From: Escherichia phage vB_EcoM_PHB13 | Reading direction: 5' to 3' (one strand) | Sequence record: MK573636 | Length of the DNA stretch: 64,000 nucleotides | Shown: positions 2,481 to 53,038 of the stretch, piece after piece | Numbering within the stretch: the first letter of the stretch is position 1 | Layout: each line of letters starts with the position of its first letter | Position numbers and translations under genes: made by a program | Notes under the pieces: generated by a model | Told to the model about the DNA's origin: nothing | The model's database searches: none | What the model saw: the letters and a program-made list of their open reading frames with translations, nothing else

Positions 2481-4343
2481 ATGGAAAAACTAATCAAAGA
2501 CATTACAGAGATCGCAACGGGTAAAGAAAACGAAGTAAGCAAAGAGAACGCGAACAAAGACGCGCGAACATTCCCGACACGTCGAGATCTGATTGCTGGT
2601 GCTGTGTCTAAACAGATTGCTAAAACCGTGTTACCTGAGCACATCTATAAAGCGCATGTAGACGGTGACATTCATTATCATGATATGGATTATGCACCCG
2701 CTATGCCGTTTACTAACTGCTGTCTTGTTAATCTCAAAGACATGTTAGAGAATGGTTTTAAATTGGGTAGCGCACAAATCGAAAGTCCGAAATCAATCGG
2801 CGTTGCTTGTGCTGTAACCGCTCAAATTATCGCACAGGTGGCAAGTCATCAATATGGCGGGACCACAATCGCAAACATCGACCAGGTGTTAGCGCCGTAT
2901 GTTAAGAAAACATATCATAAACACCTTGCTGATGCCGAAGCCTACGGAATCAAAGCTGATACTCTCTATGCACAAGAGAAAACAGAAAAAGAAACGTTAG
3001 ACGGATATCAGGCGTTGGAATATGAGATCAACACTTTGTTCTCTACCAACGGTCAAACACCTTTTGTGACTTTAACCTTTGGTATGGGTACTAGCTGGGA
3101 AGAAAAACTGATTCAGAAAGCGATCCTGAAAGTTCGAACTAAAGGTTTAGGTAAAGACGGTATAACTCCGGTGTTTCCTAAGCTGGTGATGTTCTTAGAA
3201 GAAGGATTAAACCTTAAACCGGAAGATCCGAACTACGACATTAAGCAACTTGCATTGGAATGTTCTAGTAAGCGTCTTTACCCTGATTATATCTCTGCGA
3301 AGAATAACCGTAGCATCACTGGATCTAGTGTTCCGGTTAGCCCGATGGGTTGTCGTAGCTTCCTGGGTGTGTGGCATAATGATAAAGGCGAGGAAGTATT
3401 AGACGGACGTAATAACTTAGGTGTTGTGACTCTGAATCTTCCGCGTATTGCCCTTATTGCCGCTCGTCGTGCTGGTAAAGCGTCTGTAATGCGCAGAATT
3501 GAGCTATTCGAACAAGAGCTAGCTAATCGTATGCCTATTTGCTTTGATGCGCTCATGAGTCGCGTAGACGCTTTAAAAGGGGCTAAAGCCAATGTTGCTC
3601 CGGTGCTGTATACAGAAGGTGCATTTTTCCGTATTCATCAAAACGATGAAATTTTGGAAGTGTTGAAAGATGGTCGCGCTAGTATCTCTCTTGGGTATAT
3701 TGGTTTACATGAGGTATTGAGCGTCCTGTTTGGTGTTCATCCGTTTGATTCGGAAGATGCGCAGCGATACGGTAAACATATTCTTAAGATCTTGCGTCAT
3801 TATACTGAAAAATGGAAGGATGAAACCGGACTTGGGTTTAGTCTTTACGGTACGCCAGCCGAGAGCCTTTGCTATCGATTTAATCGACTGGATCGAGAGC
3901 AATTTGGTATTGTTAAGGGTGCTACCGATAAAGACTGGTACACCAACTCATTCCACCTTGACGTAGACCGGAAAGTCACACCATTTGAGAAAATCGACTT
4001 TGAGAAAGATTATCACTGGCTGGCGTCCGGTGGCATGATCTCTTATGTTGAGTTCCCAGACATGAAAAACAACCTGAAAGGTCTTGAAACTGTAGTAGAC
4101 TATGCAATGGATAAATTGCACTACTTCGGTGTTAATACTCCTTCTGATGTATGTCATGTATGCGGATCTAATAAGGAAATGAGAGCGACCGAGTCTGGTT
4201 TTGTTTGCCCTGATTGCGGCAATGACAATCTGGAAAAGATGAATGTTATCCGTCGCGTTAGTGGATATCTTGGATCTGTTGATCTGCGTCCATTCAACCA
4301 CGGGAAACACTCCGAGATGGTAAACCGCGTTAAGCACATGTAA
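2481..4343 (+). CDS. nrdD: anaerobic ribonucleoside-triphosphate reductase
   Basis: 620 aa; C-terminal Zn ribbon CHVCG...CPDCG and glycyl-radical motif RRVSGY; T4 NrdD-like. Confidence 0.9.
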   Translation: MEKLIKDITEIATGKENEVSKENANKDARTFPTRRDLIAGAVSKQIAKTVLPEHIYKAHVDGDIHYHDMDYAPAMPFTNCCLVNLKDMLENGFKLGSAQIESPKSIGVACAVTAQIIAQVASHQYGGTTIANIDQVLAPYVKKTYHKHLADAEAYGIKADTLYAQEKTEKETLDGYQALEYEINTLFSTNGQTPFVTLTFGMGTSWEEKLIQKAILKVRTKGLGKDGITPVFPKLVMFLEEGLNLKPEDPNYDIKQLALECSSKRLYPDYISAKNNRSITGSSVPVSPMGCRSFLGVWHNDKGEEVLDGRNNLGVVTLNLPRIALIAARRAGKASVMRRIELFEQELANRMPICFDALMSRVDALKGAKANVAPVLYTEGAFFRIHQNDEILEVLKDGRASISLGYIGLHEVLSVLFGVHPFDSEDAQRYGKHILKILRHYTEKWKDETGLGFSLYGTPAESLCYRFNRLDREQFGIVKGATDKDWYTNSFHLDVDRKVTPFEKIDFEKDYHWLASGGMISYVEFPDMKNNLKGLETVVDYAMDKLHYFGVNTPSDVCHVCGSNKEMRATESGFVCPDCGNDNLEKMNVIRRVSGYLGSVDLRPFNHGKHSEMVNRVKHM

Positions 4344-11945: not shown

Positions 11946-12971
11946 ATGAAAATTTTGCTTTTAGGTGATCTGCATACTGGCATCGGTGGCGATGATCCGT
12001 GGGTGCATGAGTATATTTTAGACACGATCAAGAAAGCTGTTGATTATTCTAAAGAAAATGGTATTAAGATATGGATTCAAACAGGGGATTGGTTTGATTG
12101 TCGCAAGGCTATCACACATGAAACCATGAAATTTAACCGTACTAAGGTCATCCCATTACTGGAAGAGGCAGGAATCACCTGTTATATCACGGTCGGGAAT
12201 CATGATATGTTTAAACGCAATAAGATCCAGCCTAACGCGCCGCGTGAAGTGTTAAGCCAGTATGATTGCATTAAGGTTATTGATAAGCCAGAAACAGTTA
12301 CCTTTGATGGGGTATCATTCGACCTGTTCCCGTGGTTTTGTGATGACAATAAATCCGAGGTTTTAGAGTTTATTCAAAATTCATTCAGCGAATATTGTGT
12401 AGGCCATTGGGAATTGTCCGGCTACTATTTCTATAAAGGGTTAAAATCCGAAGGTTATAGCGCGGACTTCCTCAAGAAATACCGTGAAGTGTTTTCCGGT
12501 CACTTTCATACTATCAGTGATGGCGGTAACGTAACGTATATTGGCACACCATACACACTAACGGCTGGCGACGAAAATGATCCGCGTGGTTTTTGGGTAT
12601 TCGATACAGATACACACAAAAAGGAGTTTATCCAGAATGACAAAACTTATCATGTGCGTATCACTTACCCGTCAGATGATAAAATCGATGTAGAACGCTT
12701 TAAAGGGCTTAGTGTGCGCCTAATTGCAACGGTCGCTGATAATGGGTTAACTAAGTTAGAAAGCGCGTTAGAAGCCGTTGTGCATAAGCTAAAAGTTGTC
12801 CATAAGCTGGAGAGTAGCGCATCACAGGAAACAGGTGTTATTGAAGTTAAAAGCACTATTCAGATGGTCTATGAATATCTGGAAGAACAAAACCTAGAAC
12901 CGGAAGAACTTGCGGCGGTCAAGCGTATTTCTGATGAACTTTTAGCCGAAGTAAATAACGCAAAAAGTTAG
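11946..12971 (+). CDS. 47: recombination endonuclease subunit gp47 (Mre11-like)
   Basis: phosphoesterase motifs LLLGDLHTG, GDWFD, GNHD; synteny 55-47-46. Confidence 0.85.
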   Translation: MKILLLGDLHTGIGGDDPWVHEYILDTIKKAVDYSKENGIKIWIQTGDWFDCRKAITHETMKFNRTKVIPLLEEAGITCYITVGNHDMFKRNKIQPNAPREVLSQYDCIKVIDKPETVTFDGVSFDLFPWFCDDNKSEVLEFIQNSFSEYCVGHWELSGYYFYKGLKSEGYSADFLKKYREVFSGHFHTISDGGNVTYIGTPYTLTAGDENDPRGFWVFDTDTHKKEFIQNDKTYHVRITYPSDDKIDVERFKGLSVRLIATVADNGLTKLESALEAVVHKLKVVHKLESSASQETGVIEVKSTIQMVYEYLEEQNLEPEELAAVKRISDELLAEVNNAKS

Positions 12972-19850: not shown

Positions 19851-22529
19851 ATGTATTTTCTGTCATGTGAGCGAGTAGGTGATAAGATCTACGAGCGTTA
19901 TATTGATGATGCTGGACAAGAACAAGAGCGTTACGTTGAATATACGCCAACTTTATTTCATCATGCCGCGCCTGGTATGGTTACGAATTATAAAGATATC
20001 TATGGCAAGCCTTGCATTGCTAAAAAATTCCCCTCTATGAACGAGGCCAACAAATGGCGTAAAAAGATGGGGGAGATGGGGCAAGAGGCACTAGGGATGG
20101 ATGATTTTATCATCTCCTATCTGTCTGATACGTATAAAGGCGAGATTCGATATGACCGAAATAAAATCCGTGTAGCATGGGTTGATATCGAGGTCACTGC
20201 CCCAGAATTTCCTAAACCAGAAGAAGCGAAATATCCTATCGATGCAATTACGCATTATGATTCCGTACATGATCGTTTCTTTGTATTTGATTTGAAAGGA
20301 AAAAACGGTGAATCTTGGGAAGCAAGCAAGTCTATTCTTCGCCCAGATATTGTAGAACGTGTTGTTTATAACGTCTATGACACAGAAGATGAATTGCTGT
20401 TAGAATACATCCGATTCTTTGAGGAAAACCGACCCGTTGGTTTCACTGGCTGGAACACAGAAACATTCGATATTCCATATATCATTAAACGTATCAGTAA
20501 TAAGTTCGGAAGTAGAACCGCTAACCGTCTAAGCCCGTGCGGTAAGATTAAATCCCGAATCTCACAGGATGATTTTGGCAACGAGCGTGAAGCATTTACG
20601 ATCATGGGGATCGAAAGCCTTGATTATATTGACCTGTACAAGAAATTTAGCTTTACGACTCAACCAACATATGCATTAGATTATGTTGCTGAATACGAGA
20701 CAGGAATCGGTAAGGTTGATTATGATGGTCCGTTAAAGAAATTGCGTGATGACAACCATCAACTTTACATCGATTATAACATCGGCGACGTTGATCGTGT
20801 GCTGGCGATTGATAAAAAGCGTGGATTTATCGATCTGGTGTATAGCCTATGTTTCTATGCAAAGATTAAATTTAACCATGTTTATAACCCGATGAAAGTA
20901 TGGGATGCTATTATCTTCGGATCTCTGAAAGCTGAGGGTAAAGTAGTACCGGAAAATAAGATACAACCTAAGCAGACGTATCCAGGCGCATTTGTAAAAG
21001 AACCTGTGCCAAATGCTTACCGTTGGATGATGAGCTTTGACTTAACAAGTTTGTACCCATCTATTATTCGACAGGTTAATATTTCGCCTGAAACAATCGC
21101 TGGATCTTTTGATGCTGCACCGATGCACGAGTATATCAATAAAACTGCACCACGTCCTAGTGATGAGTATTCTTGCTCGCCTAACGGATGGATGTATCGA
21201 AAAGATATTCATGGTATCGTACCGATTGAGATTAAAAAGGTATTCGATCAGCGTAAGCAGTACAAAAACATGATGTTGGCATGTGATCGCAATGCTGAAC
21301 TATGTAAAGCGATTCTACACGATGAAAATCATGTTTATGGGGGAACCATTAGCTATAGCGTTGAAGTGCGTCACGACTTCGATGAAGCGTTTAAATCGAT
21401 GCTTTCTGAATTAAGTAAAGACGCCTTAGAGAAATTGCTGGAAGAATGTAAAGACGAGTCGATCTTGTGCAATACAAACCAGCTTTCTCGAAAAGTTTTG
21501 ATCAACTCCCTTTATGGTGCGTTGGGGAATCCTAAATTCCGTTTTTATGATCTCCGTAACGCTAGTGCGATCACACTGTTCGGTCAGCTTGCAATTCAGT
21601 GGATTGAGCGTAAGATTAACGAATACTTAAACGAGCTTTGCGGAACAACCGATTTTGCATATGTTCGTTATTGTGATACTGACTCCGTTTATGTGCTGGT
21701 TAACAATGTTGTTGATAAGGTTGGCGGGGAAGACCGTTTCGACGATACCGAAAAACTTGTTGACTTCCTTGATAATTTCGGTAAACATCGAATGGAACCT
21801 ATTATCGACAAGGGATATCGCGAGTTATGCGAGTACATGAACAACTATGAGCACTTGATGTTTATGGACCGCGAGGCAATTGCTGGTCCTCCGTTGAAAT
21901 CTGCGGGTATCGGTGGATTCTGGACTGGTAAAAAGCGTTATGCTCTTAATGTTTGGGATATGGAAGGAACGCGCTTTGCTGAACCTAAGCTAAAAATCAT
22001 GGGCTTGGAAACGCAACGTAGCTCCACCCCGAAAGCATGTCAGAAATCACTGAAAGAATGTATTCGCCGTATGTTGCAGGAAGGTGAAGAGTCATTGCAG
22101 GAATACTACGGTATTTTTGAGCAAGAATTTAGAAAACTTGACTATCTTGATGTTGCTGCGGTATCATCTGCAAACAACCTACAGAAATACAGCGATTCAA
22201 ACGGGTATCCGATTAAGGGTTGTCCGTATGCGGTTAAGAGTGTATTGTGTTATAATCGTAATGCTCGAAAATTCGGACTAGATCCGATTCGTGAAGGCGA
22301 GAAGGTTATGATTGTACCGCTGAAAGATCGAAATCCGTTTGGAGAAATCTGTTTTGGTTGGTTGTCCGGTACTCGTATTCCTCCAGAGATTGAAAGCGAG
22401 GTGTTAAAGTGGTTAGACTGGTCTTTGTTGTTTAATAAGACTTTCGTCAAACCACTGGAGAACATTACAACGGCTGCAAAGCTGCAATATGAAAAAGTGG
22501 CATCTCTTACAGACCTGTTTGACATTTAA
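19851..22529 (+). CDS. 43: DNA polymerase gp43 (family B)
   Basis: exo motif VDIEV, SLYPSIIRQVNISPET, polymerase motif CDTDSVYV; T4 gp43-like; start at ATG 19851. Confidence 0.95.
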   Translation: MYFLSCERVGDKIYERYIDDAGQEQERYVEYTPTLFHHAAPGMVTNYKDIYGKPCIAKKFPSMNEANKWRKKMGEMGQEALGMDDFIISYLSDTYKGEIRYDRNKIRVAWVDIEVTAPEFPKPEEAKYPIDAITHYDSVHDRFFVFDLKGKNGESWEASKSILRPDIVERVVYNVYDTEDELLLEYIRFFEENRPVGFTGWNTETFDIPYIIKRISNKFGSRTANRLSPCGKIKSRISQDDFGNEREAFTIMGIESLDYIDLYKKFSFTTQPTYALDYVAEYETGIGKVDYDGPLKKLRDDNHQLYIDYNIGDVDRVLAIDKKRGFIDLVYSLCFYAKIKFNHVYNPMKVWDAIIFGSLKAEGKVVPENKIQPKQTYPGAFVKEPVPNAYRWMMSFDLTSLYPSIIRQVNISPETIAGSFDAAPMHEYINKTAPRPSDEYSCSPNGWMYRKDIHGIVPIEIKKVFDQRKQYKNMMLACDRNAELCKAILHDENHVYGGTISYSVEVRHDFDEAFKSMLSELSKDALEKLLEECKDESILCNTNQLSRKVLINSLYGALGNPKFRFYDLRNASAITLFGQLAIQWIERKINEYLNELCGTTDFAYVRYCDTDSVYVLVNNVVDKVGGEDRFDDTEKLVDFLDNFGKHRMEPIIDKGYRELCEYMNNYEHLMFMDREAIAGPPLKSAGIGGFWTGKKRYALNVWDMEGTRFAEPKLKIMGLETQRSSTPKACQKSLKECIRRMLQEGEESLQEYYGIFEQEFRKLDYLDVAAVSSANNLQKYSDSNGYPIKGCPYAVKSVLCYNRNARKFGLDPIREGEKVMIVPLKDRNPFGEICFGWLSGTRIPPEIESEVLKWLDWSLLFNKTFVKPLENITTAAKLQYEKVASLTDLFDI

Positions 22530-24234: not shown

Positions 24235-25643
24235 TTAAAACTATCTTTTCACAGTTGATTTACAATGGCGCATTCTTTACGAATGTATGGCCTCACCTTA
24301 AAGCGGACTACTTCACCGAAGACGAAGAAAAACTGATTTATAAGCTGATTAAAAAGCACGTAGACGAATATTCCAATATTCCTACGCCAACAGCATTACA
24401 GATTGCTTTAGACAAGGAGAGAGGCAATCAGACAACATATGAAGGGGCTAAAACTCTTCTTGATTCGCTTGAGAATACACCGGAAGACCTTGATTGGTTA
24501 ATGAAGGAAACCGAAAAATTTATTCGTGACCGTGCCATGTATAATGCAATGTCACGGGCGCTAGAGATTCAGGCGAACGCACAACTACCAAAAGAGAAAC
24601 AGAATAAGAAATTGCCGAGTGAGGGTGCTATTCCTGAGATCATGCAGGAAGCACTATCCATTACGTTTGATTCTGATGTAGGTCATGACTGGTTTAATGA
24701 CTTTGAAAAACGATTCTTGCTATATCAGACTAAGGCGAATAAGATCCCGTTTAAGCTGCCGATGTTGAATAAAATCACGAAAGGAGGTGCGGAAAGAAAA
24801 ACGCTAAATGTGTTGCTTGCTGGTGTAAACGTTGGTAAATCGCTTGGCTTGTGTTCTCTTGCTGCGGATTATATGGAATGTGGTTATGATGTATTGTATA
24901 TATCAATGGAGATGGCAGAGCATGTCGTAGCAAAACGTATCGACGCAAACTTGCTTGACATTACATTAGATGAATTGGATAATGGTAATGTTTCTTTTGC
25001 GGAATATTCCGCACGCATGAAGCGTGTTAAGAATAAGAAGATCGGAGATCGTCCGGTTGGAAAATTGATGATCAAGCAGTATCCGACTGGTGGCGCAAAC
25101 TCCAATCACTTTGAGGCGTTAATGAATGAATTGCGACTCAAGAAACAGTTTAAACCTGATGTTGTGATTGTTGACTATCTGGGGATTTGCGCATCGTCTC
25201 GCTTGCGTGTATACTCTGAAAATAGTTACACACTAGTTAAGGCGATTGCGGAAGAACTGCGAGGATTTTTTGTTAAGTGGGATGTTGTTGGTTGGACTGC
25301 GGCACAGACTACCCGCGCGGGTTGGGATGCTTCCGACCTTAACATGAGTGATACCGCTGAATCAGCAGGTCTTCCGGCTACTGCCGACTTTATGTTGGGT
25401 GTTATCGAAACCGAAGACCTGGCTAAAATGGGCGTCCAACTCATGAAGCAGATCAAGTCTCGTTACGGTGATAAGAACTATTATTCACGGTTTAACGTTG
25501 GTGTGAAGAAAGGCAATCAGCGTTGGTATGAAGTACCAAACCAGATCGCAGATCAGGAGAATACACAAGTTAAACCACAAAGCGCACAGCAAGCCGAGAA
25601 ACGCGAAAAACTCGACGAGCTAGCAAATACCATGACTTTCTAA
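24231..25643 (+). CDS. 41: replicative DNA helicase gp41 (DnaB-like)
   Basis: Walker A AGVNVGKS, RecA-like core; synteny. Confidence 0.85.
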   Translation: MIKTIFSQLIYNGAFFTNVWPHLKADYFTEDEEKLIYKLIKKHVDEYSNIPTPTALQIALDKERGNQTTYEGAKTLLDSLENTPEDLDWLMKETEKFIRDRAMYNAMSRALEIQANAQLPKEKQNKKLPSEGAIPEIMQEALSITFDSDVGHDWFNDFEKRFLLYQTKANKIPFKLPMLNKITKGGAERKTLNVLLAGVNVGKSLGLCSLAADYMECGYDVLYISMEMAEHVVAKRIDANLLDITLDELDNGNVSFAEYSARMKRVKNKKIGDRPVGKLMIKQYPTGGANSNHFEALMNELRLKKQFKPDVVIVDYLGICASSRLRVYSENSYTLVKAIAEELRGFFVKWDVVGWTAAQTTRAGWDASDLNMSDTAESAGLPATADFMLGVIETEDLAKMGVQLMKQIKSRYGDKNYYSRFNVGVKKGNQRWYEVPNQIADQENTQVKPQSAQQAEKREKLDELANTMTF

Positions 25644-43281: not shown

Positions 43282-43310
43282 AAGCCGATCCTTGTGGTCG
43301 GCTTTTTTAT
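43282..43310 (+). terminator. intrinsic terminator AAGCCGATCC-ttgt-GGTCGGCTT plus T-run
   Basis: read directly; same hairpin inverted near 53208. Confidence 0.55.
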
Positions 43311-43322
43311 TTTAAAAAGTTG

Positions 43323-43351
43323 TTGACTTACAGAATCCAACATTGCATAAT
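43323..43351 (+). promoter_or_regulatory. sigma70-like promoter TTGACT-17bp-CATAAT
   Basis: read directly. Confidence 0.4.
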
Positions 43352-43382
43352 ACACCCATACCAAACAAAAGGAGAATCAAAG

Positions 43383-43659: not shown

Positions 43660-43878
43660 ATGAACTGGTATAAAATTTGGAAAAATCAGGTGGAGGCTTA
43701 TCTAGGGTATAAGCCCACCGACGAAGAATTACTCGATGCAATGTACGAAGACGGACTAAATCCGAAAGTAGCCGCGCGAGAATACGCGGAATGGATGAAG
43801 GTCGAAGATAACCTAGAGGCAACGAAAAATTTTCACGAAAATAATAAAAAAGCAGTTGACGCCAAAGGTCATCGATAG
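43660..43878 (+). CDS. hypothetical protein
   Basis: in-frame ATG within track ORF 43645..43878. Confidence 0.35.
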   Translation: MNWYKIWKNQVEAYLGYKPTDEELLDAMYEDGLNPKVAAREYAEWMKVEDNLEATKNFHENNKKAVDAKGHR

Positions 43879-43918
43879 TATTATACTCCCATACCGAAAC
43901 GAACTGGAGGAAATAAAA

Positions 43919-44161
43919 ATGGTTAAAGTTAATGTTATCGAAGTTGCACTGTACGACGCTGGAATCTTCCTGAATGAAAAAGAAGCTGCCGTGCTCGATG
44001 AACTGAAAACTGTTTTTGTTCCTGTAGTAGAAGACGTTGAAGCAATTAAAATCGCTTCTCGTAAACTGTCTCGCGAAGCATTCGACATGATTGATCCGGT
44101 TTTCAAAGTTATGCACGAATGCGCGGTTATGATGACCGAAGAAGAAGCGAAAAATTTCTAA
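43919..44161 (+). CDS. hypothetical acidic protein
   Basis: in-frame ATG within track ORF 43856..44161 after SD GGAGG. Confidence 0.4.
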   Translation: MVKVNVIEVALYDAGIFLNEKEAAVLDELKTVFVPVVEDVEAIKIASRKLSREAFDMIDPVFKVMHECAVMMTEEEAKNF

Positions 44162-44168
44162 AAACCAG

Positions 44169-44203
44169 TTGACGTAAAGAAACGGGAGTAGTAAGATACT
44201 CCC
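44169..44203 (+). promoter_or_regulatory. early promoter TTGACG with stem-loop GGGAGTA-gtaaga-TACTCCC (same core as 649..683)
   Basis: read directly. Confidence 0.5.
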
Positions 44204-44226
44204 ATACCAAACGAAAGGAGAATCAC

Positions 44227-44439
44227 ATGAAATCTATCGAGCAAGTAGTAACAGAGTTTATGAGCTACGAAGGAAACCGCATCTTTGGACGTTCTCAAGT
44301 TCGCGAGATCGTGGAAGAGGTCTCTGGAGAGTTTGCGGAATCTGGTCACGTTATCACGCAAGAACGTAAAGAAGAAGCAGTAAACCAGATCATGGCTATG
44401 CAGAAAATGCGTATTAATGCACGAGCGGGTAAAAATTAA
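44227..44439 (+). CDS. hypothetical protein
   Basis: ORF track, 70 aa. Confidence 0.4.
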   Translation: MKSIEQVVTEFMSYEGNRIFGRSQVREIVEEVSGEFAESGHVITQERKEEAVNQIMAMQKMRINARAGKN

Positions 44440-44446
44440 AAAGTAG

Positions 44447-44481
44447 TTGACACCGGATTAAGGGAGTAGTAAGATACTCCC
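44447..44481 (+). promoter_or_regulatory. early promoter TTGACA with stem-loop GGGAGTA-gtaaga-TACTCCC (third copy)
   Basis: read directly. Confidence 0.5.
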
Positions 44482-44508
44482 ATCAAGAAAAACATTGAGG
44501 AATATATT

Positions 44509-45309
44509 ATGAAAAACATTATCGCTGCGATCGTTCTTTCTACTACGGCTTTCGGTGCTAATGCTGCGTCCTTTGATTGCGCTAAAGCTACTACCAAACC
44601 AGAGAAGTTTATTTGTGCTAATGAGTCAATCTCCGCACTGGATTCTAAACTTAATGAAGTATATGTTAAGGCTGTTAAGATTGATCCATCTCTTAAACAA
44701 GAGCAACGCAACTGGAATAAAACTGTTCGTGATACAATGATCAACATCGGGCAAATACAGCCACTGGAGGCTGTATATAACGCTCAAATCCAAAACTTGA
44801 TGAACGTATTACCTAAAGAAGAAACAGCGTCAGAAAGCGATTCAGAGACTTCTGCGAAGGTTGAAGAAGAACAACCGAAACAAGAAGAAAAAGTGGTAGA
44901 GCAACCGAAGAAAGAAGAGAAAATCTATGGATCTATCACTTACCAGTGCATTGCAAAATTTACATGGAAAATCATTGATGGTATTGAGACAGACAGCCGC
45001 AAAGATCCATTGTATGGAAACTCTACTTATGGCAACAAGGGCGGAAAGCTGAAAATGACCATGACCGAAGGTGAATTGTCTTCTTTCGTATATGTTGATG
45101 AGCGCGAAGTGTTTAAATCAAATCTGACACGCAGCAAACAATATAAAAATATGGTTGTTGGTATGAGCAAACCGGATGTAGCAGGATACTTCAACGAGTA
45201 CAAAATGTGGGTAGGGGAAAACGATGAAATCCGCTTTGAAGTCATCGAGAAAGGTCGCATTAGCTATGATTATGGTACTCAATATGTTTGCGAATATAAG
45301 AAGGGTTAA
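44509..45309 (+). CDS. secreted/periplasmic protein with N-terminal signal peptide and DUF1311 (LprI lysozyme-inhibitor-like) domain
   Basis: signal peptide ...AFGANA/AS; motif FDCAKATTKPEKFICANESISALDSKLNEVY...EQRNW. Confidence 0.55.
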   Translation: MKNIIAAIVLSTTAFGANAASFDCAKATTKPEKFICANESISALDSKLNEVYVKAVKIDPSLKQEQRNWNKTVRDTMINIGQIQPLEAVYNAQIQNLMNVLPKEETASESDSETSAKVEEEQPKQEEKVVEQPKKEEKIYGSITYQCIAKFTWKIIDGIETDSRKDPLYGNSTYGNKGGKLKMTMTEGELSSFVYVDEREVFKSNLTRSKQYKNMVVGMSKPDVAGYFNEYKMWVGENDEIRFEVIEKGRISYDYGTQYVCEYKKG

Positions 45310-45591
45310 ATGATGAAATTTAACAACATGAAGTTTAAAAAAGATTGGTGGGATGCTATGAGAGCTAACGACCGGATCGGAATTGGAAAGGCAGAAAAGA
45401 CAGTTGTTATTGTCAAGTATAAAGCGACGCAAGATCTTTTGATTAAGGAACTCATTCGAGCGGGTAACTATCAAACACCGGAAGGTCTTATTGACATGAT
45501 GGTTGATAACATGTATAGTGACGAACCACCAAACATTAAACAATATTACAAGCAGTATTACCGAAAGTGGCAGAATTACAACCGAAAATAA
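45310..45591 (+). CDS. hypothetical protein
   Basis: ORF track. Confidence 0.35.
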   Translation: MMKFNNMKFKKDWWDAMRANDRIGIGKAEKTVVIVKYKATQDLLIKELIRAGNYQTPEGLIDMMVDNMYSDEPPNIKQYYKQYYRKWQNYNRK

Positions 45592-45614
45592 GTTGTTGAC
45601 GTGAGGATTATATT

Positions 45615-45806
45615 ATGGTAATTTTTAATCGCGATGGTATCATAGTTCGGCAACACCCATTCCTTGAATACTATCAGGTTGAACAATGGGGATATGGGGA
45701 TTGTTCTCGATCATACGGTCAAAGCTGGGGATACCGTACAGTTTTTGAATCAACCGATATTGACAAAGTACGACAGAAAGTTTTAGAACTTCTTAACGAT
45801 AAGTGA
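45615..45806 (+). CDS. hypothetical protein
   Basis: ORF track; SD GAGGATTATATT. Confidence 0.4.
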   Translation: MVIFNRDGIIVRQHPFLEYYQVEQWGYGDCSRSYGQSWGYRTVFESTDIDKVRQKVLELLNDK

Positions 45807-45816
45807 GGATTAAATC

Positions 45817-46185
45817 ATGGAAATTCAAAACAATTACGAAAAATGTGTTATTATCAATGATTTGCAACGTCAATTGCATCATTACGAAACCGATTATAAA
45901 ACAGCAACCAAAACCGGAAAGTTGAAAGTGTGGGAAGTCTGGTATAACCGAAACTATCTGGGAAGCATCCACAAACTTGATCGCAGTGATGTTTATACAA
46001 TGCATGTGGGCGCGTGTGGCGAATCGGATGTAGCATCTAATTTCATGGAAGCACTTGCATTCTATGTAGAATATCTGGTAGACTATATCGAGTTGGAAGA
46101 GGAAGTGGTAGAATTGCTTCCTCCACCGGAAGAAGCGCCGGAAGCAACGATCCTGAAAGCATTAAAGAAAATCTTTGTTAAGTGA
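45817..46185 (+). CDS. hypothetical protein
   Basis: ORF track. Confidence 0.4.
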   Translation: MEIQNNYEKCVIINDLQRQLHHYETDYKTATKTGKLKVWEVWYNRNYLGSIHKLDRSDVYTMHVGACGESDVASNFMEALAFYVEYLVDYIELEEEVVELLPPPEEAPEATILKALKKIFVK

Positions 46186-48278: not shown

Positions 48279-48518
48279 TTATTTAGGTAGTTGACTATCA
48301 CTAGGTTTATCTTGCTCGTTACTATCTTCTGACTGATCTTTATTAAACTCCTTATAAAGTTCTTCCACAAAACGATCATCAATTGGCGTATTGGTATAAG
48401 CCGCAAGACGACGAGCGCAATAGAAGAAAATTTTAGTGAGCATCTTTTCACTAATTAACTTTGACAATAATTTCATTCCGAAATTAGACAAAGCACCAAT
48501 GACGATATTATAGACCAT
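48279..48518 (-). CDS. hypothetical protein between gene 37 and holin (the T4 gp38 position; not gp38-like)
   Basis: ORF track; SD AAGGAGA. Confidence 0.4.
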   Translation of the reverse strand: MVYNIVIGALSNFGMKLLSKLISEKMLTKIFFYCARRLAAYTNTPIDDRFVEELYKEFNKDQSEDSNEQDKPSDSQLPK

Positions 48519-48558: not shown

Positions 48559-51477
48559 TTAATTCTTTTTAAGTTCCGCTAGTTCAGCTTTAACGGCTTT
48601 CAATTCTTCGCTCATTTCCTGAAACGCCTTAATTAAAAGAGCGTTGACAGCAGAGTTAGAAATTGTTAAGATCTCTTCTGGTTTATCTGGATCGCCGATC
48701 TTAGAAGTTGTTACTGCTTCCGGCAATTCTTTTTCAAGATCCTGAGCAATAATACCAACTTCATGAGCGATAACAGTGCGGTCCGTCAAAGACTTAACCT
48801 TATCGTAGGTGTACACAGTCAAGCGATTAACTTTATCGGTGGCATTCTCCTTATACTCTTCCTTGTTGATTTTCAGACGAGCATCAGAACGAATATACAC
48901 ATCGTTAAACGAACCGTTACGTCCTGCCGACATGTCACCGGTGGCGCTAAAGTCAAAGTTGGCGTCATTAACGTTTAGGCGTGCTATAGCATTACCTATA
49001 GTGCCGCCAGGAACGTGTACACCCATTGCCGCAATATGATATTTTCCCCAATGAGTCGCTTTCCAGATGTTATGAGCGGAATCGGTTGATTGAGGACAGT
49101 CTACGAGGATTCCGGCAGAACGATCACGCCAGCTAGCCCAGCTACCACCAGCAACACTACCACGAATCAAACCTTTATCAGATCCGCCGACGCTACCAGA
49201 TTCCAACTGGATCATTTTATCTGCAAATTTCCACACCTGGGCTTGTTTCTGACCACGGAAGCGAATAACACCAGCATCATCGCAGTACATCAAGCCTAAC
49301 TCTAAACCGTTCGGATCTCTAAACCAGATGTGCTTATTGCCAGTACGACGAAAATCAATATCAGAACCGCCCAAAATAATATTACCGCCAGTGGTAATTG
49401 CTTGCGGCCTAAGAGTACCGTTGATGGCAAACTCGATTAATTCAGTACCCGGACCGCCAGGTCGGTGGGTATACCAATGCCACCCGCTTTCATCACCGCA
49501 TTCAAATATTTGTTTACGACTATCGTTACCCCATACACGTAGAGTAAACGTAGATGCGGCGGTCCCTTTACCCCATTTAATTTGACCAGCAGATTCCAAA
49601 TCACCGAAGAATTTAGTTTTAATCGCACCAGTTGATAAAGTACGTTCAGTGGTGAAGTGTGCACCCATGCTATCGTCAAGCTGTAAGATGTTATCACGCG
49701 CGTTATTGCTATCGCCCCAATGGTTAAACCGGAAGTAGTCGCGGGAATTTAATCGCCCAGCGTCGAAAGTCAAATGCCCTTTCTTAATGTAAACGTCATT
49801 ACTAAAGCGAGCGGCACGAGAAGCACGTTCTAACGTTAATGCTTCTTCGTTACCATCACCGCCTAATTGAACGTTACCGGAAGTTAAATCATAAATGAAT
49901 GGACGATAGCTATTCCATCCACCAAAACGATCATTTTCGGCAGTAGAAAGAAGATAAACTTTAGTGCCGTCATTACGCCAGAATGCACCGTAATTACCAA
50001 AGATCATACGGTATGCATTAGAGTTAGCGGAATAATATTGTCCGTTGGTATATACAATTTTTGTTTTTCCTACCGACAGCGTAACCTGACCAGTATCATC
50101 CAGTCTTAATGAGTTAGTACCTTCCGTTAATTCATTTACTAACTGTACGGTGTTAGTAGTAGCGTCACCATACCCTAGATAACCTTGACGGCGGTTAGCA
50201 CCGGAACGATAATCATAAAATTCTAGGTAATTACTTTGTCCGTCTCTACGCTCCATTCTGATAGCGTTATTTCCCTTAACGAAAAGACGATTTACAGTAA
50301 CCCCATTAAAATCAATTTTTAGTTGGTCTGACTGATCAGTAACGCCAGTAGCTAAACGATATACGCCACCCTCGACAACCTCATGCCATATTGTTTCTGC
50401 GGATTTGCTACGAAACTTACGAAGATATTTTTTATTGCTATCAGTCGAGTTATTCAAGCTGATAATATCATACGTTCCTTGACCGTTATTATCAAACATC
50501 AACGTTCCGGCTTTGTTTTCGGTGTTGAACATGGTAATAACACGAGCATCAAATTTAGTTCCGGTTTCTGGTTTAGTCGCCGAAAATTCAGGAACATCGT
50601 GAACAGTCAATGCAACATCAACAGTTTTTCCAAACTCTACAATAACGTTATCAGTGAAGCGACCATAGTTAACATAAATGTCATAGTTATCACCGGAAGT
50701 ATTAATTGCAAATACTTCATGGACGTTCAAAGAATTTCGACGATATGCAGCAATACTAACGCCTTTAGGGTTATTATTACCACTACGAATCACAATTTCA
50801 AGGAAATCCACCTGATCGTAGGAGTTAACATTAAATCCGTTCCCACCATAGATTCGCAGAAACGCCATCCGACCACTCTGCGGGATCATTGCGGATGCAA
50901 TTTTAAAATAACCACGGGTTGCTCCACCAGAAGGAGTAGACATTTTAACGTTCTTAACAAACATACGGTCAATTTCTTGTTTGCTATAGACGTTCAATTC
51001 TGAGGGAGTAGGTTTATCACCTTCGTGATACATGCGAAAGCTGAATCTCTTGTTACCATCCTTATCAAAGCCATAGGTTTTAACCTGAGAGGAACTAGAA
51101 CCATATTGAAATTCGAACCCGCGACCGTGTGCTTTACCGCTGGGATGAGGAATGTTCAGAATCAAGTTAGACCAATCATCAGCATTATTCGGTCGAAACG
51201 CACCAAAATAATTAAGATCTCGCGCGGTTTGGTCTTCAAAATAATTAGCGGTTTTACTTAAAATATAATTATTTCCTTTAACCTTACCCGCCATTGTAAC
51301 ATCGCTGTCATAAACCGGAGGACAACTTAAATTGATAATAGCACCGGAATCATTTTTAGTAAGAAGATATTGATCCGCAAGGTTGATTGCCAATTCCCCC
51401 GGATTCATCGTACTAGCATCCGGTCGACGACCTTTAGTGCTAGTGCGTTTAAATTGGATTCTGCTTAAATCTGCCAT
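48559..51477 (-). CDS. 37: long tail fibre distal subunit gp37 with C-terminal intramolecular chaperone-like domain
   Basis: N-terminus MADLSRIQFKRTSTKGRRPDAS...GELAINLAD resembles T4 gp37; C-terminal coiled-coil tail ...AVKAELAELKKN. Confidence 0.8.
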   Translation of the reverse strand: MADLSRIQFKRTSTKGRRPDASTMNPGELAINLADQYLLTKNDSGAIINLSCPPVYDSDVTMAGKVKGNNYILSKTANYFEDQTARDLNYFGAFRPNNADDWSNLILNIPHPSGKAHGRGFEFQYGSSSSQVKTYGFDKDGNKRFSFRMYHEGDKPTPSELNVYSKQEIDRMFVKNVKMSTPSGGATRGYFKIASAMIPQSGRMAFLRIYGGNGFNVNSYDQVDFLEIVIRSGNNNPKGVSIAAYRRNSLNVHEVFAINTSGDNYDIYVNYGRFTDNVIVEFGKTVDVALTVHDVPEFSATKPETGTKFDARVITMFNTENKAGTLMFDNNGQGTYDIISLNNSTDSNKKYLRKFRSKSAETIWHEVVEGGVYRLATGVTDQSDQLKIDFNGVTVNRLFVKGNNAIRMERRDGQSNYLEFYDYRSGANRRQGYLGYGDATTNTVQLVNELTEGTNSLRLDDTGQVTLSVGKTKIVYTNGQYYSANSNAYRMIFGNYGAFWRNDGTKVYLLSTAENDRFGGWNSYRPFIYDLTSGNVQLGGDGNEEALTLERASRAARFSNDVYIKKGHLTFDAGRLNSRDYFRFNHWGDSNNARDNILQLDDSMGAHFTTERTLSTGAIKTKFFGDLESAGQIKWGKGTAASTFTLRVWGNDSRKQIFECGDESGWHWYTHRPGGPGTELIEFAINGTLRPQAITTGGNIILGGSDIDFRRTGNKHIWFRDPNGLELGLMYCDDAGVIRFRGQKQAQVWKFADKMIQLESGSVGGSDKGLIRGSVAGGSWASWRDRSAGILVDCPQSTDSAHNIWKATHWGKYHIAAMGVHVPGGTIGNAIARLNVNDANFDFSATGDMSAGRNGSFNDVYIRSDARLKINKEEYKENATDKVNRLTVYTYDKVKSLTDRTVIAHEVGIIAQDLEKELPEAVTTSKIGDPDKPEEILTISNSAVNALLIKAFQEMSEELKAVKAELAELKKN

Positions 51478-51522
51478 TTTATAAAATCCTTAAACGGTTA
51501 TTAGAATAATATTATTTAGAAA

Positions 51523-51543
51523 AGCGGGGAGATAATCCCCGCT
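51523..51543 (-). terminator. terminator hairpin AGCGGGGA-ttatc-TCCCCGCT downstream of gene 36 (minus-strand sense)
   Basis: read directly. Confidence 0.4.
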
Positions 51544-51547
51544 AAAA

Positions 51548-53038
51548 TTAGAAAGTACCAAAATCAATCACCGCATTAAGTGGAACTGCGCCAACATCAG
51601 CCGGAGTAGGTTTATTGCCTTCATGATAAAGCTGATAGCGGTCCACGGTTTGAGTATTGTTTCTAGAACGGAAAAACACGACCTTTGAGTCGTGGGTGAT
51701 CCCCAGCTTTTCGGTCCCTTTAATATCACTAATACGGTGAATCATAGCAGTACCATCAGCACCGCTTAACGCCGCATAACAGTTATCCCCGTTATAGTTA
51801 GTTTTAGCTGTTCTAACACCGTTTGCAGCCGGAACAGTTAACGGTCCTGTCATGGTATCGCCAGTTACGTTAACATAGCGAATATCGGCTAATTTACGGT
51901 GATCTACATAGTTCCATGCAGTCCATGATTCATTAGAACACGAACGCCAGCACATCGGATGATCAATAGATTCAGGATAATACACCTGAACAATTCGACG
52001 AGTACCGACCGCATCTTCTGGGCGATATACCATCAAAACGCCGTTATAATAACTATCAGACGGTTTATTAGTACCCGACCCAGCATTTTCCACACGATAG
52101 ATACCGCGATTAATAAGAGTGTTCCAATCAACGTTTCCAATGATGGTTGGATTTGCTACCATTGATTTTCTCTCAAAGTAGCTCAAACGAACCAATTCAT
52201 TAGGACCAGCAGGATCGTTTGTCGCCAACATTCTAGGCGCTTGCAAGTTACCTTCCATAATATCACCAGCACGTTTAACCTGTGCATCATTGGTGACATT
52301 GCCTAGCCCAACATCGGCTTTAGTTGGTTTATTGTTGGTGTGATAAAAACGACCTTCTCTGCCATTAACAAAAATGGTAGGCTCATCTTTACTTCGGAAT
52401 ACCAACGTATCAAGAACGTTACCATAATAGATCTTAGTCGCATCAAAATTAATTAAATCACGTTCCCTTGCAATTAATTTCGAATCAACCGATAGTTTAA
52501 CAGTGACAGTGTTTAAATTATATGTTCCTGTGAGAGTATCACCGCGACGAGACACCAAATCTAAATCATTATTCGTTGGTTTATTAACAGGGCTATAGAC
52601 GCGTTGACCTGTGTCTTTAATGGTTGTCCCTTCGATAGTCCCTTTAGACTTAAATTCGCCCGTTGTGGTGTCAATATACGCCATAATAACGCCATCACGG
52701 GCATTAACAAAGCCGATTGACTTCCATGAATGCAAACCCCAGCTTACGCCGTCAAAATTAGCGGCATCACTCTGGCCTTTAAAGATACCATTCTTTTTGG
52801 TTTCTCCAGCCGATGCGCTACCTACGCTTAAACCTTCCTCGAAATGAACTTGCTTTTGAAATGTGCCACCTTCGGATGCACTAACAGCATCAAAATCGGT
52901 AGCCGAAGGTCTATCAAAAGCGGTATAGATTTTATGACCTTTGTAGAAAAGCTGGTCCCCCGCTGGCTGGATCGTCAAGTTTCCTTGCGTCCAAATGGGA
53001 GATCCGCCTACAGTAGATCCATATTTCAAATCTGCCAT
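51548..53038 (-). CDS. 36: long tail fibre subunit gp36
   Basis: N-terminus MADLKYGSTVGGSPIWTQGN resembles T4 gp36; candidate late promoter TATAAATA upstream. Confidence 0.6.
   Translation of the reverse strand: MADLKYGSTVGGSPIWTQGNLTIQPAGDQLFYKGHKIYTAFDRPSATDFDAVSASEGGTFQKQVHFEEGLSVGSASAGETKKNGIFKGQSDAANFDGVSWGLHSWKSIGFVNARDGVIMAYIDTTTGEFKSKGTIEGTTIKDTGQRVYSPVNKPTNNDLDLVSRRGDTLTGTYNLNTVTVKLSVDSKLIARERDLINFDATKIYYGNVLDTLVFRSKDEPTIFVNGREGRFYHTNNKPTKADVGLGNVTNDAQVKRAGDIMEGNLQAPRMLATNDPAGPNELVRLSYFERKSMVANPTIIGNVDWNTLINRGIYRVENAGSGTNKPSDSYYNGVLMVYRPEDAVGTRRIVQVYYPESIDHPMCWRSCSNESWTAWNYVDHRKLADIRYVNVTGDTMTGPLTVPAANGVRTAKTNYNGDNCYAALSGADGTAMIHRISDIKGTEKLGITHDSKVVFFRSRNNTQTVDRYQLYHEGNKPTPADVGAVPLNAVIDFGTF

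Follow-up and report, generated by a model that had tools for sequence, protein, structure and literature searches.

Is the LprI-family protein encoded in the early region of RB49-like phages a lysozyme inhibitor, as its family name implies, or does it serve another purpose in the infected cell? We examined this question for the copy carried by the window, a 64,000-nt stretch of the Escherichia phage vB_EcoM_PHB13 record MK573636, which is part of a Krischvirus genome, that is, of a T4 relative resembling RB49, Phi1, JSE and GEC-3S (96.8% identity between GEC-3S and window bases 44000-46000). The gene occupies positions 44509..45309 on the + strand, stop codon included, starts with ATG and encodes 266 aa; a Shine-Dalgarno sequence, GAGGA (44497..44501, + strand), can be read about 7-8 nt before the start codon. 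Its orthologues RB49 ORF260c, GEC-3S BN201_0263 and JSE EpJSE_00265 are all annotated as 'hypothetical', and a DUF1311 hint for ORF260c was published in 2006 with E=0.2 (PMC1524935). Homologues in NCBI and UniProt are named 'lysozyme inhibitor LprI family' or 'LprI-like N-terminal domain'. The protein matches PHROG 14799 end to end and two further PHROGs at its N-terminus only. An NCBIfam search returned only SMC and BhsA noise due to low complexity in the linker and to the signal peptide, PADLOC reported nothing for the gene, and a search of the full protein against PDB sequences gave nothing at E up to 10. Our analysis shows that the protein joins a known domain family to a new modular architecture.

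The N-terminus (MKNIIAAIVLSTTAFGANA, followed after the cleavage site by ASFDC) presents Lys2, an uncharged hydrophobic core of 14 residues and A17-N18-A19 at positions -3 to -1. This is the three-part layout of a Sec signal peptide, and it agrees with the signal peptide and A-x-A site of the original prediction. The predicted signal peptide covers aa 1-19 (44509..44565, + strand), with a predicted signal peptidase I site A-N-A↓A in the cleavage region FGANA↓AS; the call combines a reading of the sequence with a crude in-house screen, which the protein passed, and the segment is modelled with pLDDT <50. Since a lipobox with Cys at +1 is absent, the first Cys being residue 24 in an SFDC context, the LprI-family protein should be soluble. 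These features point to export to the periplasm in soluble form. The same crude screen picked out several further candidate exported proteins in GEC-3S, among them BN201_0093 ('vs', 119 aa), BN201_0094 (196 aa) and the lipobox protein BN201_0187 (161 aa, …LTGC…), located at 50873-51830 and 111951-112436 of that record.

The signal peptide is followed by a helical DUF1311/LprI-N domain, hereafter the head (aa ~22-101; 44572..44811, + strand), which is nearly invariant among homologues. Pfam PF07007 LprI (formerly DUF1311) matches aa 24-76 with E=9.4e-7 and 29.6 bits against a gathering score of 22, so that the DUF1311 motif first noticed by eye is upheld by an HMM search; the match spans profile positions 1-71 of 106 and not the full-length domain. 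Five homologues, from RB49, JSE, an E. coli prophage, Klebsiella phage Marfa and Aeromonas phage CC2, pass the same cut-off with 22.4-28.4 bits. In an AlphaFold model built from 20 homologues, aa 30-100 form four helices (pLDDT 66-80), giving the helical-bundle fold of the solved DUF1311 protein PP0307 (3gi7). The second conserved Cys pair of the bacterial-type member P0021 (CKSTEC) falls in an alignment gap in the phage head, which thus keeps Cys24 and Cys36 only; as far as the alignment indicates, this is the sole Cys pair of the phage head.

The remainder of the protein had been described as an unknown domain of roughly 150 aa. A C-terminal region is indeed present, but in the model it is not a single domain: it consists of a disordered linker of ~37 aa and a 128-aa all-beta domain. 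The linker (aa ~102-138; 44812..44922, + strand; pLDDT 32-43) has an acidic composition with many Pro, Lys and Glu residues (…ETASESDSETSAKVEEEQPKQEEKVVEQPKKEEK…; …EEEQPKQEEKVVEQPKKEEK…), and in the alignment its length differs between homologues by short repeat units, seen as EEKQPE-like indels. The C-terminal domain (aa 139-266; 44923..45306, + strand) was placed at aa 141-263 in the full-length AlphaFold model and, when modelled alone, gave eight consecutive antiparallel strands arranged as an up-and-down beta-barrel (pLDDT 88.8, pTM 0.82). Cys147 in strand 1 and Cys261 in strand 8 are invariant across all barrel variants and would presumably form a disulphide clasp, which would fit a periplasmic location. 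Conservation of barrel strands and loops (0.59 vs 0.53) revealed no clear hypervariable-loop pattern. A phmmer search with the barrel against 1.84 billion cluster representatives recovered its own cluster only. Judged by these sequence searches, the barrel is an orphan with no relatives outside its own family. Fold matches in BFVD beyond the RB49 orthologue were limited to a few small uncharacterised phage barrels or 'lipoproteins' (E about 1e-4, TM 0.5-0.6).

The combination of an LprI head with a barrel recalls M. tuberculosis LprI (Rv1541c): both proteins are exported and carry a DUF1311 domain followed by an 8-stranded beta-barrel with a disulphide, which on the phage side is presumed. The phage protein might then be a true bipartite lysozyme inhibitor of this type, which is the original prediction in its narrow form; its barrel would be an extremely diverged MliC/PliC-like domain directed at a lysozyme-fold enzyme, such as animal lysozyme, an endolysin or the gp5 tail lysozyme that incoming phages bring. 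We consider this reading unlikely. The modelled barrel appears to share with MliC, PliC and ACP the fold type and the placing of a Cys pair in the first and last strands, but it does not belong to their family (PF09864) by sequence. A Pfam scan of the whole protein and 12 barrel variants at E up to 10 found no MliC, the variants giving scattered single weak matches, and hhalign of the barrel profile against the MliC profile returned a probability of 0.7%. A 12-sequence barrel profile searched against PDB sequences gave chance matches only (best, a PhoU-like protein, E=0.007) and no MliC, PliC or ACP entry. Finally, the MliC motifs SxSGAxY (inhibitory loop) and YxxxTKG, as defined previously (PMC5507604), occur in the alignment in none of the barrel classes. 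M. tuberculosis LprI is moreover a lipoprotein, unlike the phage protein, and lacks the disordered linker between the domains and the hypervariability of the barrel that we see in the phage.

These comparisons bear on the label itself. In M. tuberculosis LprI it is the MliC domain that was shown to be sufficient for lysozyme resistance, and Salmonella ScwA, an LprI-domain protein that is soluble, periplasmic and disulphide-bonded, gave no lysozyme resistance (PMC7933661). Because the proven inhibitor in M. tuberculosis LprI is the MliC domain, 'lysozyme inhibitor' is a weak label for the phage protein. Of the lysozyme-inhibitor-like reading in the original prediction, the LprI domain and the signal peptide stand, whereas inhibition does not follow from what the domain is called. 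The annotation 'Lysozyme inhibitor LprI family protein' is spreading with a domain that has no demonstrated lysozyme inhibition of its own.

Our main new finding is that the barrel is swapped wholesale between Krischviruses and E. coli prophages. Alignment of 19 homologues showed that aa 1-~130 are almost invariant. At least six barrel classes can be distinguished, which are 15-45% identical to the window barrel. The class of the window barrel was found at >=98.5% identity in 10 records (GEC-3S, Phi1, MIZ2/3/6, ELT3, AV108, E26). The RB49 barrel, present in about 45 sequenced phage records, is 36-37% identical to that of the window, UPWr_E1 carries another class (32% identity), and the JSE barrel cannot be aligned to the window barrel. 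At the nucleotide level, positions 1-390 of the gene are 90-97% identical among Krischviruses and prophage copies, but beyond this point identity drops to 45-65% and the sequences are essentially unaligned. By blastn against RB49, JSE and UPWr_E1, one breakpoint falls where the linker ends (window positions 44910-44922) and the other where the gene ends (45279-45309). What is exchanged is thus precisely the barrel, and the linker forms the 5' recombination boundary of the variable cassette. Head codons 1-103 show dS of 0.13-0.27 with dN/dS of 0-0.16, which means that the head is conserved by selection and not by recency. We conclude that the head is under strong purifying selection.

Of 5,426 complete E. 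coli genomes, 26 have the gene, each time as a single chromosomal copy that forms the end of a prophage. This prophage has a terminase gpA, portal, capsid, Rha regulator and tail fibre, with head genes of lambda type, and sits in the antitoxin gene hicB, leaving hicB truncated and hicA intact. The LprI-family gene is the outermost gene of this prophage, at 20001-20795 of the region extracted from CP035865 and 12001-12780 of that from CP038394, both E. coli chromosomes. Prophage and Krischvirus heads are 92-97% identical in nucleotide sequence, and dS between them (0.15-0.24) is no greater than among Krischvirus heads. The prophage barrels are JSE-like in 6 genomes and of the class designated P0005 in the other 20. 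Upstream, the DNA is unrelated to the phage context, and downstream a hairpin is followed by a T-run, which together indicate a stand-alone unit with the layout of a prophage accessory gene ('moron'). The divergent gene located upstream has no Krischvirus homologue by tblastn; by eye, its N-terminal sequence resembles a small terminase subunit. The E275 prophage copy is riddled with IS elements and its tail-fibre gene is broken.

LprI heads joined to other C-terminal domains occur in Klebsiella Marfaviruses, Aeromonas T4-like phages, phage SSU5 and others. Klebsiella Marfa gp026 and Aeromonas CC2 gp301 (PHROG 4675) share with the window protein the signal peptide, the LprI head (37-45% identity), the linker, a Cys-containing C-terminal domain and an early-region location, but the sequences of their C-terminal domains are unrelated to the Krischvirus barrel. 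In Marfa, the 252-aa LprI-head protein is encoded between the primase and dCTPase genes and has a signal peptide, the head and a different, apparently helical, Cys-containing C-terminal domain; an annotated spackle homologue lies ~2 kb away (644-925 and 3001-3759 of the extracted region).

In the window, gene 52 (topoisomerase) and the holin gene t flank the variable early region that contains the LprI-family gene. The gene is preceded on the + strand by a PeSL-type putative early promoter cassette (44429..44489), which scored 10/12 in a consensus scan; PeSL elements have been described for RB49 and Phi1 (PMC2839356). The cassette has an AT-rich stretch, a -35 TTGACA (44447-44452) and, after a 17-nt spacer, a -10 TAAGAT (44470-44475), and a stem-loop GGGAGTA-GTAAGA-TACTCCC (GGGAGTAGTAAGATACTCCC; 44462-44481), all on the + strand, overlaps the -10 element. 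In GEC-3S this element carries a promoter annotation. It falls into repeat families D2, D3 and D11, of which further copies lie at 43838-43898 and 44151-44225. A plain count of the PeSL promoter consensus showed no enrichment over shuffled sequence; the argument for a promoter rests on the position and repetition of the cassette. From these features we infer that the LprI-family gene has its own early promoter and would be expressed early.

Several observations concern the organization of this region. PeSL-type cassettes stand before successive small early ORFs (43310-43379, 43838-43898, 44151-44225 and 44429-44489), an exact 22-nt repeat (GGGAGTAGTAAGATACTCCCAT) occurs within them at 44184 and 44462, and indels relative to related phages are bounded by such cassettes. 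The window carries an extra cassette at about 43812-44167 (ORF 43856-44161) that is absent in RB49 and JSE; RB49, JSE and UPWr_E1 carry an extra ~200-bp cassette (156-nt ORF261c) directly upstream of the LprI gene; and about 170 bp present in GEC-3S near 43816-43819 are missing from the window. The upstream 70-aa ORF (44227-44439) is 96-99% identical among Krischviruses. On the downstream side, a 93-aa ORF (45310-45591, + strand), with neither a signal peptide nor a Pfam or PADLOC match, starts directly after the LprI stop codon (TAAATG) and may for this reason be translationally coupled to it. It is unusually variable among Krischviruses: its identity to the window copy is 100% in GEC-3S, 74% in JSE, 48% in RB49 and 35% in UPWr_E1. 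We considered whether the two genes form a toxin-immunity pair and rejected this, because variation in the 93-aa ORF does not follow that of the barrel and the prophage copies lack this ORF.

T4 Spackle (Sp, gp61.3) is a periplasmic inhibitor of the gp5 tail lysozyme. To our knowledge, few periplasmic superinfection-exclusion proteins are understood mechanistically, and Spackle is the model case. The Spackle analogy had already led the original prediction to propose superinfection exclusion or lysis timing for the LprI-family protein. Both proteins come from T4-type phages, and the LprI-family protein would, like Spackle, be an early, Sec-exported, soluble periplasmic protein containing a disulphide, although the two have no sequence similarity. 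With T4 Sp and Marfa Sp as tblastn queries, we obtained only spurious matches in the window and throughout GEC-3S, the closest complete genome. The best of them, and the only T4 Spackle match with E below 0.1 in this phage, was at window 25296-25490 (E=0.048; 27% over 74 aa); it falls within the gene for the gp41 helicase and was taken as chance. T4 Imm had no credible tblastn match in the whole GEC-3S genome, and the ORFs of the 61-41 interval fall into PHROGs without known function. The genes rI, t and gp5 are present in GEC-3S. Since the LprI-family protein has no similarity to T4 Spackle, and since Marfa has an LprI-type protein in addition to spackle, it is not a simple Spackle replacement. 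The several other candidate exported proteins of GEC-3S are a further caveat. Our literature searches on LprI with superinfection exclusion, and on RB49 with spackle, found no papers.

The best explanation that we can offer starts from the ORF, the domain call, the modelled fold, the modular evolution and the occurrence of the gene in both lytic and temperate phages, and adds to these the predicted export, promoter timing and disulphide bond. The architecture would be that of a constant head, a flexible tether and an exchangeable binder. Given the strong purifying selection on it, the DUF1311 head probably engages something invariant, perhaps a component of the host periplasm or cell wall, perhaps a conserved class of hydrolases that act on the wall. 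The barrel, with its presumed disulphide clasp, would be the specificity module that lytic Krischviruses and a temperate E. coli prophage exchange as a cassette, and its job would be to bind and neutralise a variable protein that attacks the cell via the periplasm. The foremost candidates for such a target are proteins that superinfecting phages use for piercing the cell wall or for penetration, and the outcome would be exclusion and resistance to lysis from without, in analogy with T4 Spackle. A role in periplasmic exclusion or immunity is plausible, and the protein is probably a protective binder. The full reading, namely an early-expressed, Sec-exported periplasmic protective factor that acts like Spackle against superinfecting phages, is one that we favour tentatively, at somewhat less than even chances. 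The early cassette, the lack of sp and imm in GEC-3S, the prophage copy and the hypervariable barrel lend the superinfection-exclusion idea independent, circumstantial support. The ties of DUF1311 proteins to the neutralisation of periplasmic cell-wall toxins and the architectural parallel with M. tuberculosis LprI also speak for the favoured reading.

A broader form of this idea is possible, although we would not lean towards it: the protein may be a polymorphic periplasmic defence module of coliphages, composed of a DUF1311 handle, a tether and an exchangeable barrel as recognition head, whose alleles are traded between lytic and temperate phages and each neutralise different phages or toxins. 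In the periplasm, such a module would be the equivalent of polymorphic cassettes for immunity or receptor binding. If the family is indeed a modular factor for exclusion or immunity, this would explain how RB49-like phages, which lack Spackle, resist lysis from without, and would mean that lytic and temperate phages take their specificity cassettes from a common pool. In that case the barrel alleles would be a natural panel for mapping the phage or toxin proteins that they target, which is relevant to the design of phage-therapy cocktails; Phi1 was originally isolated for phage therapy.

A different attacker is suggested by bacterial DUF1311 proteins. Co-expression of Etsi4 (DUF1311, from EHEC) rescues the toxicity of the T6SS effector Etse4 (PMC12981562), and the homologues in other Pantoea strains of orphan Pantoea LprI genes adjoin lysozyme-like effectors (PMC9796082; PMC12135965); the immunity link is thus one of co-expression rescue for Etsi4 and of gene neighbourhood for Pantoea. 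Like the phage protein, these proteins and ScwA have a signal peptide and a DUF1311 domain and reside in the periplasm (as predicted for the phage protein), and they are tied to peptidoglycan-acting enzymes. They differ from it in that they have no added barrel and adjoin effector genes or lie in chromosomal loci. By this analogy, the ties of DUF1311 to the neutralisation of periplasmic cell-wall T6SS effectors imply that the phage head may bind cell-wall hydrolases and that the protein might act as an inhibitor. The protein could accordingly be viewed as immunity-like, shielding a lysogen or an infected cell among its competitors from interbacterial toxins that act in the periplasm, for example T6SS cell-wall hydrolases or bacteriocins, a reading that we find quite improbable. 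We found no effector-like gene next to the LprI-type gene in Krischvirus, Marfa, CC2 or the E. coli prophage, and such immunity would bring little gain to a phage that is strictly lytic and whose latent period lasts tens of minutes. In the known cases it is DUF1311 that is specific, whereas here it is the invariant part, and the match to 4nsr is to a small helical bundle with the same Z as designed miniproteins.

ScwA suggests instead an action on the host's own enzymes. This protein controls the level of the lytic transglycosylase MltD by raising it, and overproduction causes lysis (PMC7933661). The phage protein might likewise modulate host cell-wall enzymes and so tune wall remodelling, lysis or lysis inhibition, and the holin gene t does lie only 2.3 kb from the LprI-family gene. 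However, conserved host enzymes would leave the hypervariable barrel unexplained, and the LprI domain of ScwA is C-terminal, which is a different architecture. The same gene is also found, in unrelated surroundings, in a prophage with lambda-type head genes, and Krischviruses already have rI and t. We therefore regard such modulation as having only a slim chance, and for the last two reasons lysis timing, the second role in the original prediction, is likewise unlikely.

Masking of the phage's own receptor or of the envelope from the periplasmic side, in the manner of T5 Llp or phi80 Cor, would suit a prophage-shared protein that is predicted to be periplasmic and early and whose barrel has small phage 'lipoprotein' barrels among its nearest viral fold matches, but it is very unlikely, since the protein has no lipobox and the barrel class does not track the tip of gp37. 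The distal tail-fibre gene gp37 (48559-51477, - strand) encodes 972 aa, and its tip (aa ~560-850) is at most 90% identical to that of any sequenced phage, with wide variation within the genus. We detected no co-variation between barrel class and this receptor-binding tip: phages that share one barrel class have tips as much as 90% but also as little as 69% or less identical to that of the window, and the tip of RB49, whose barrel is of another class, is 89% identical. By eye, the C-terminus of gp37 (…IAHEVGIIAQDLEKELPEAV…) looks like an intramolecular-chaperone (peptidase S74-type) domain, and a 79-aa ORF (48279-48518) occupies the position expected for gp38.
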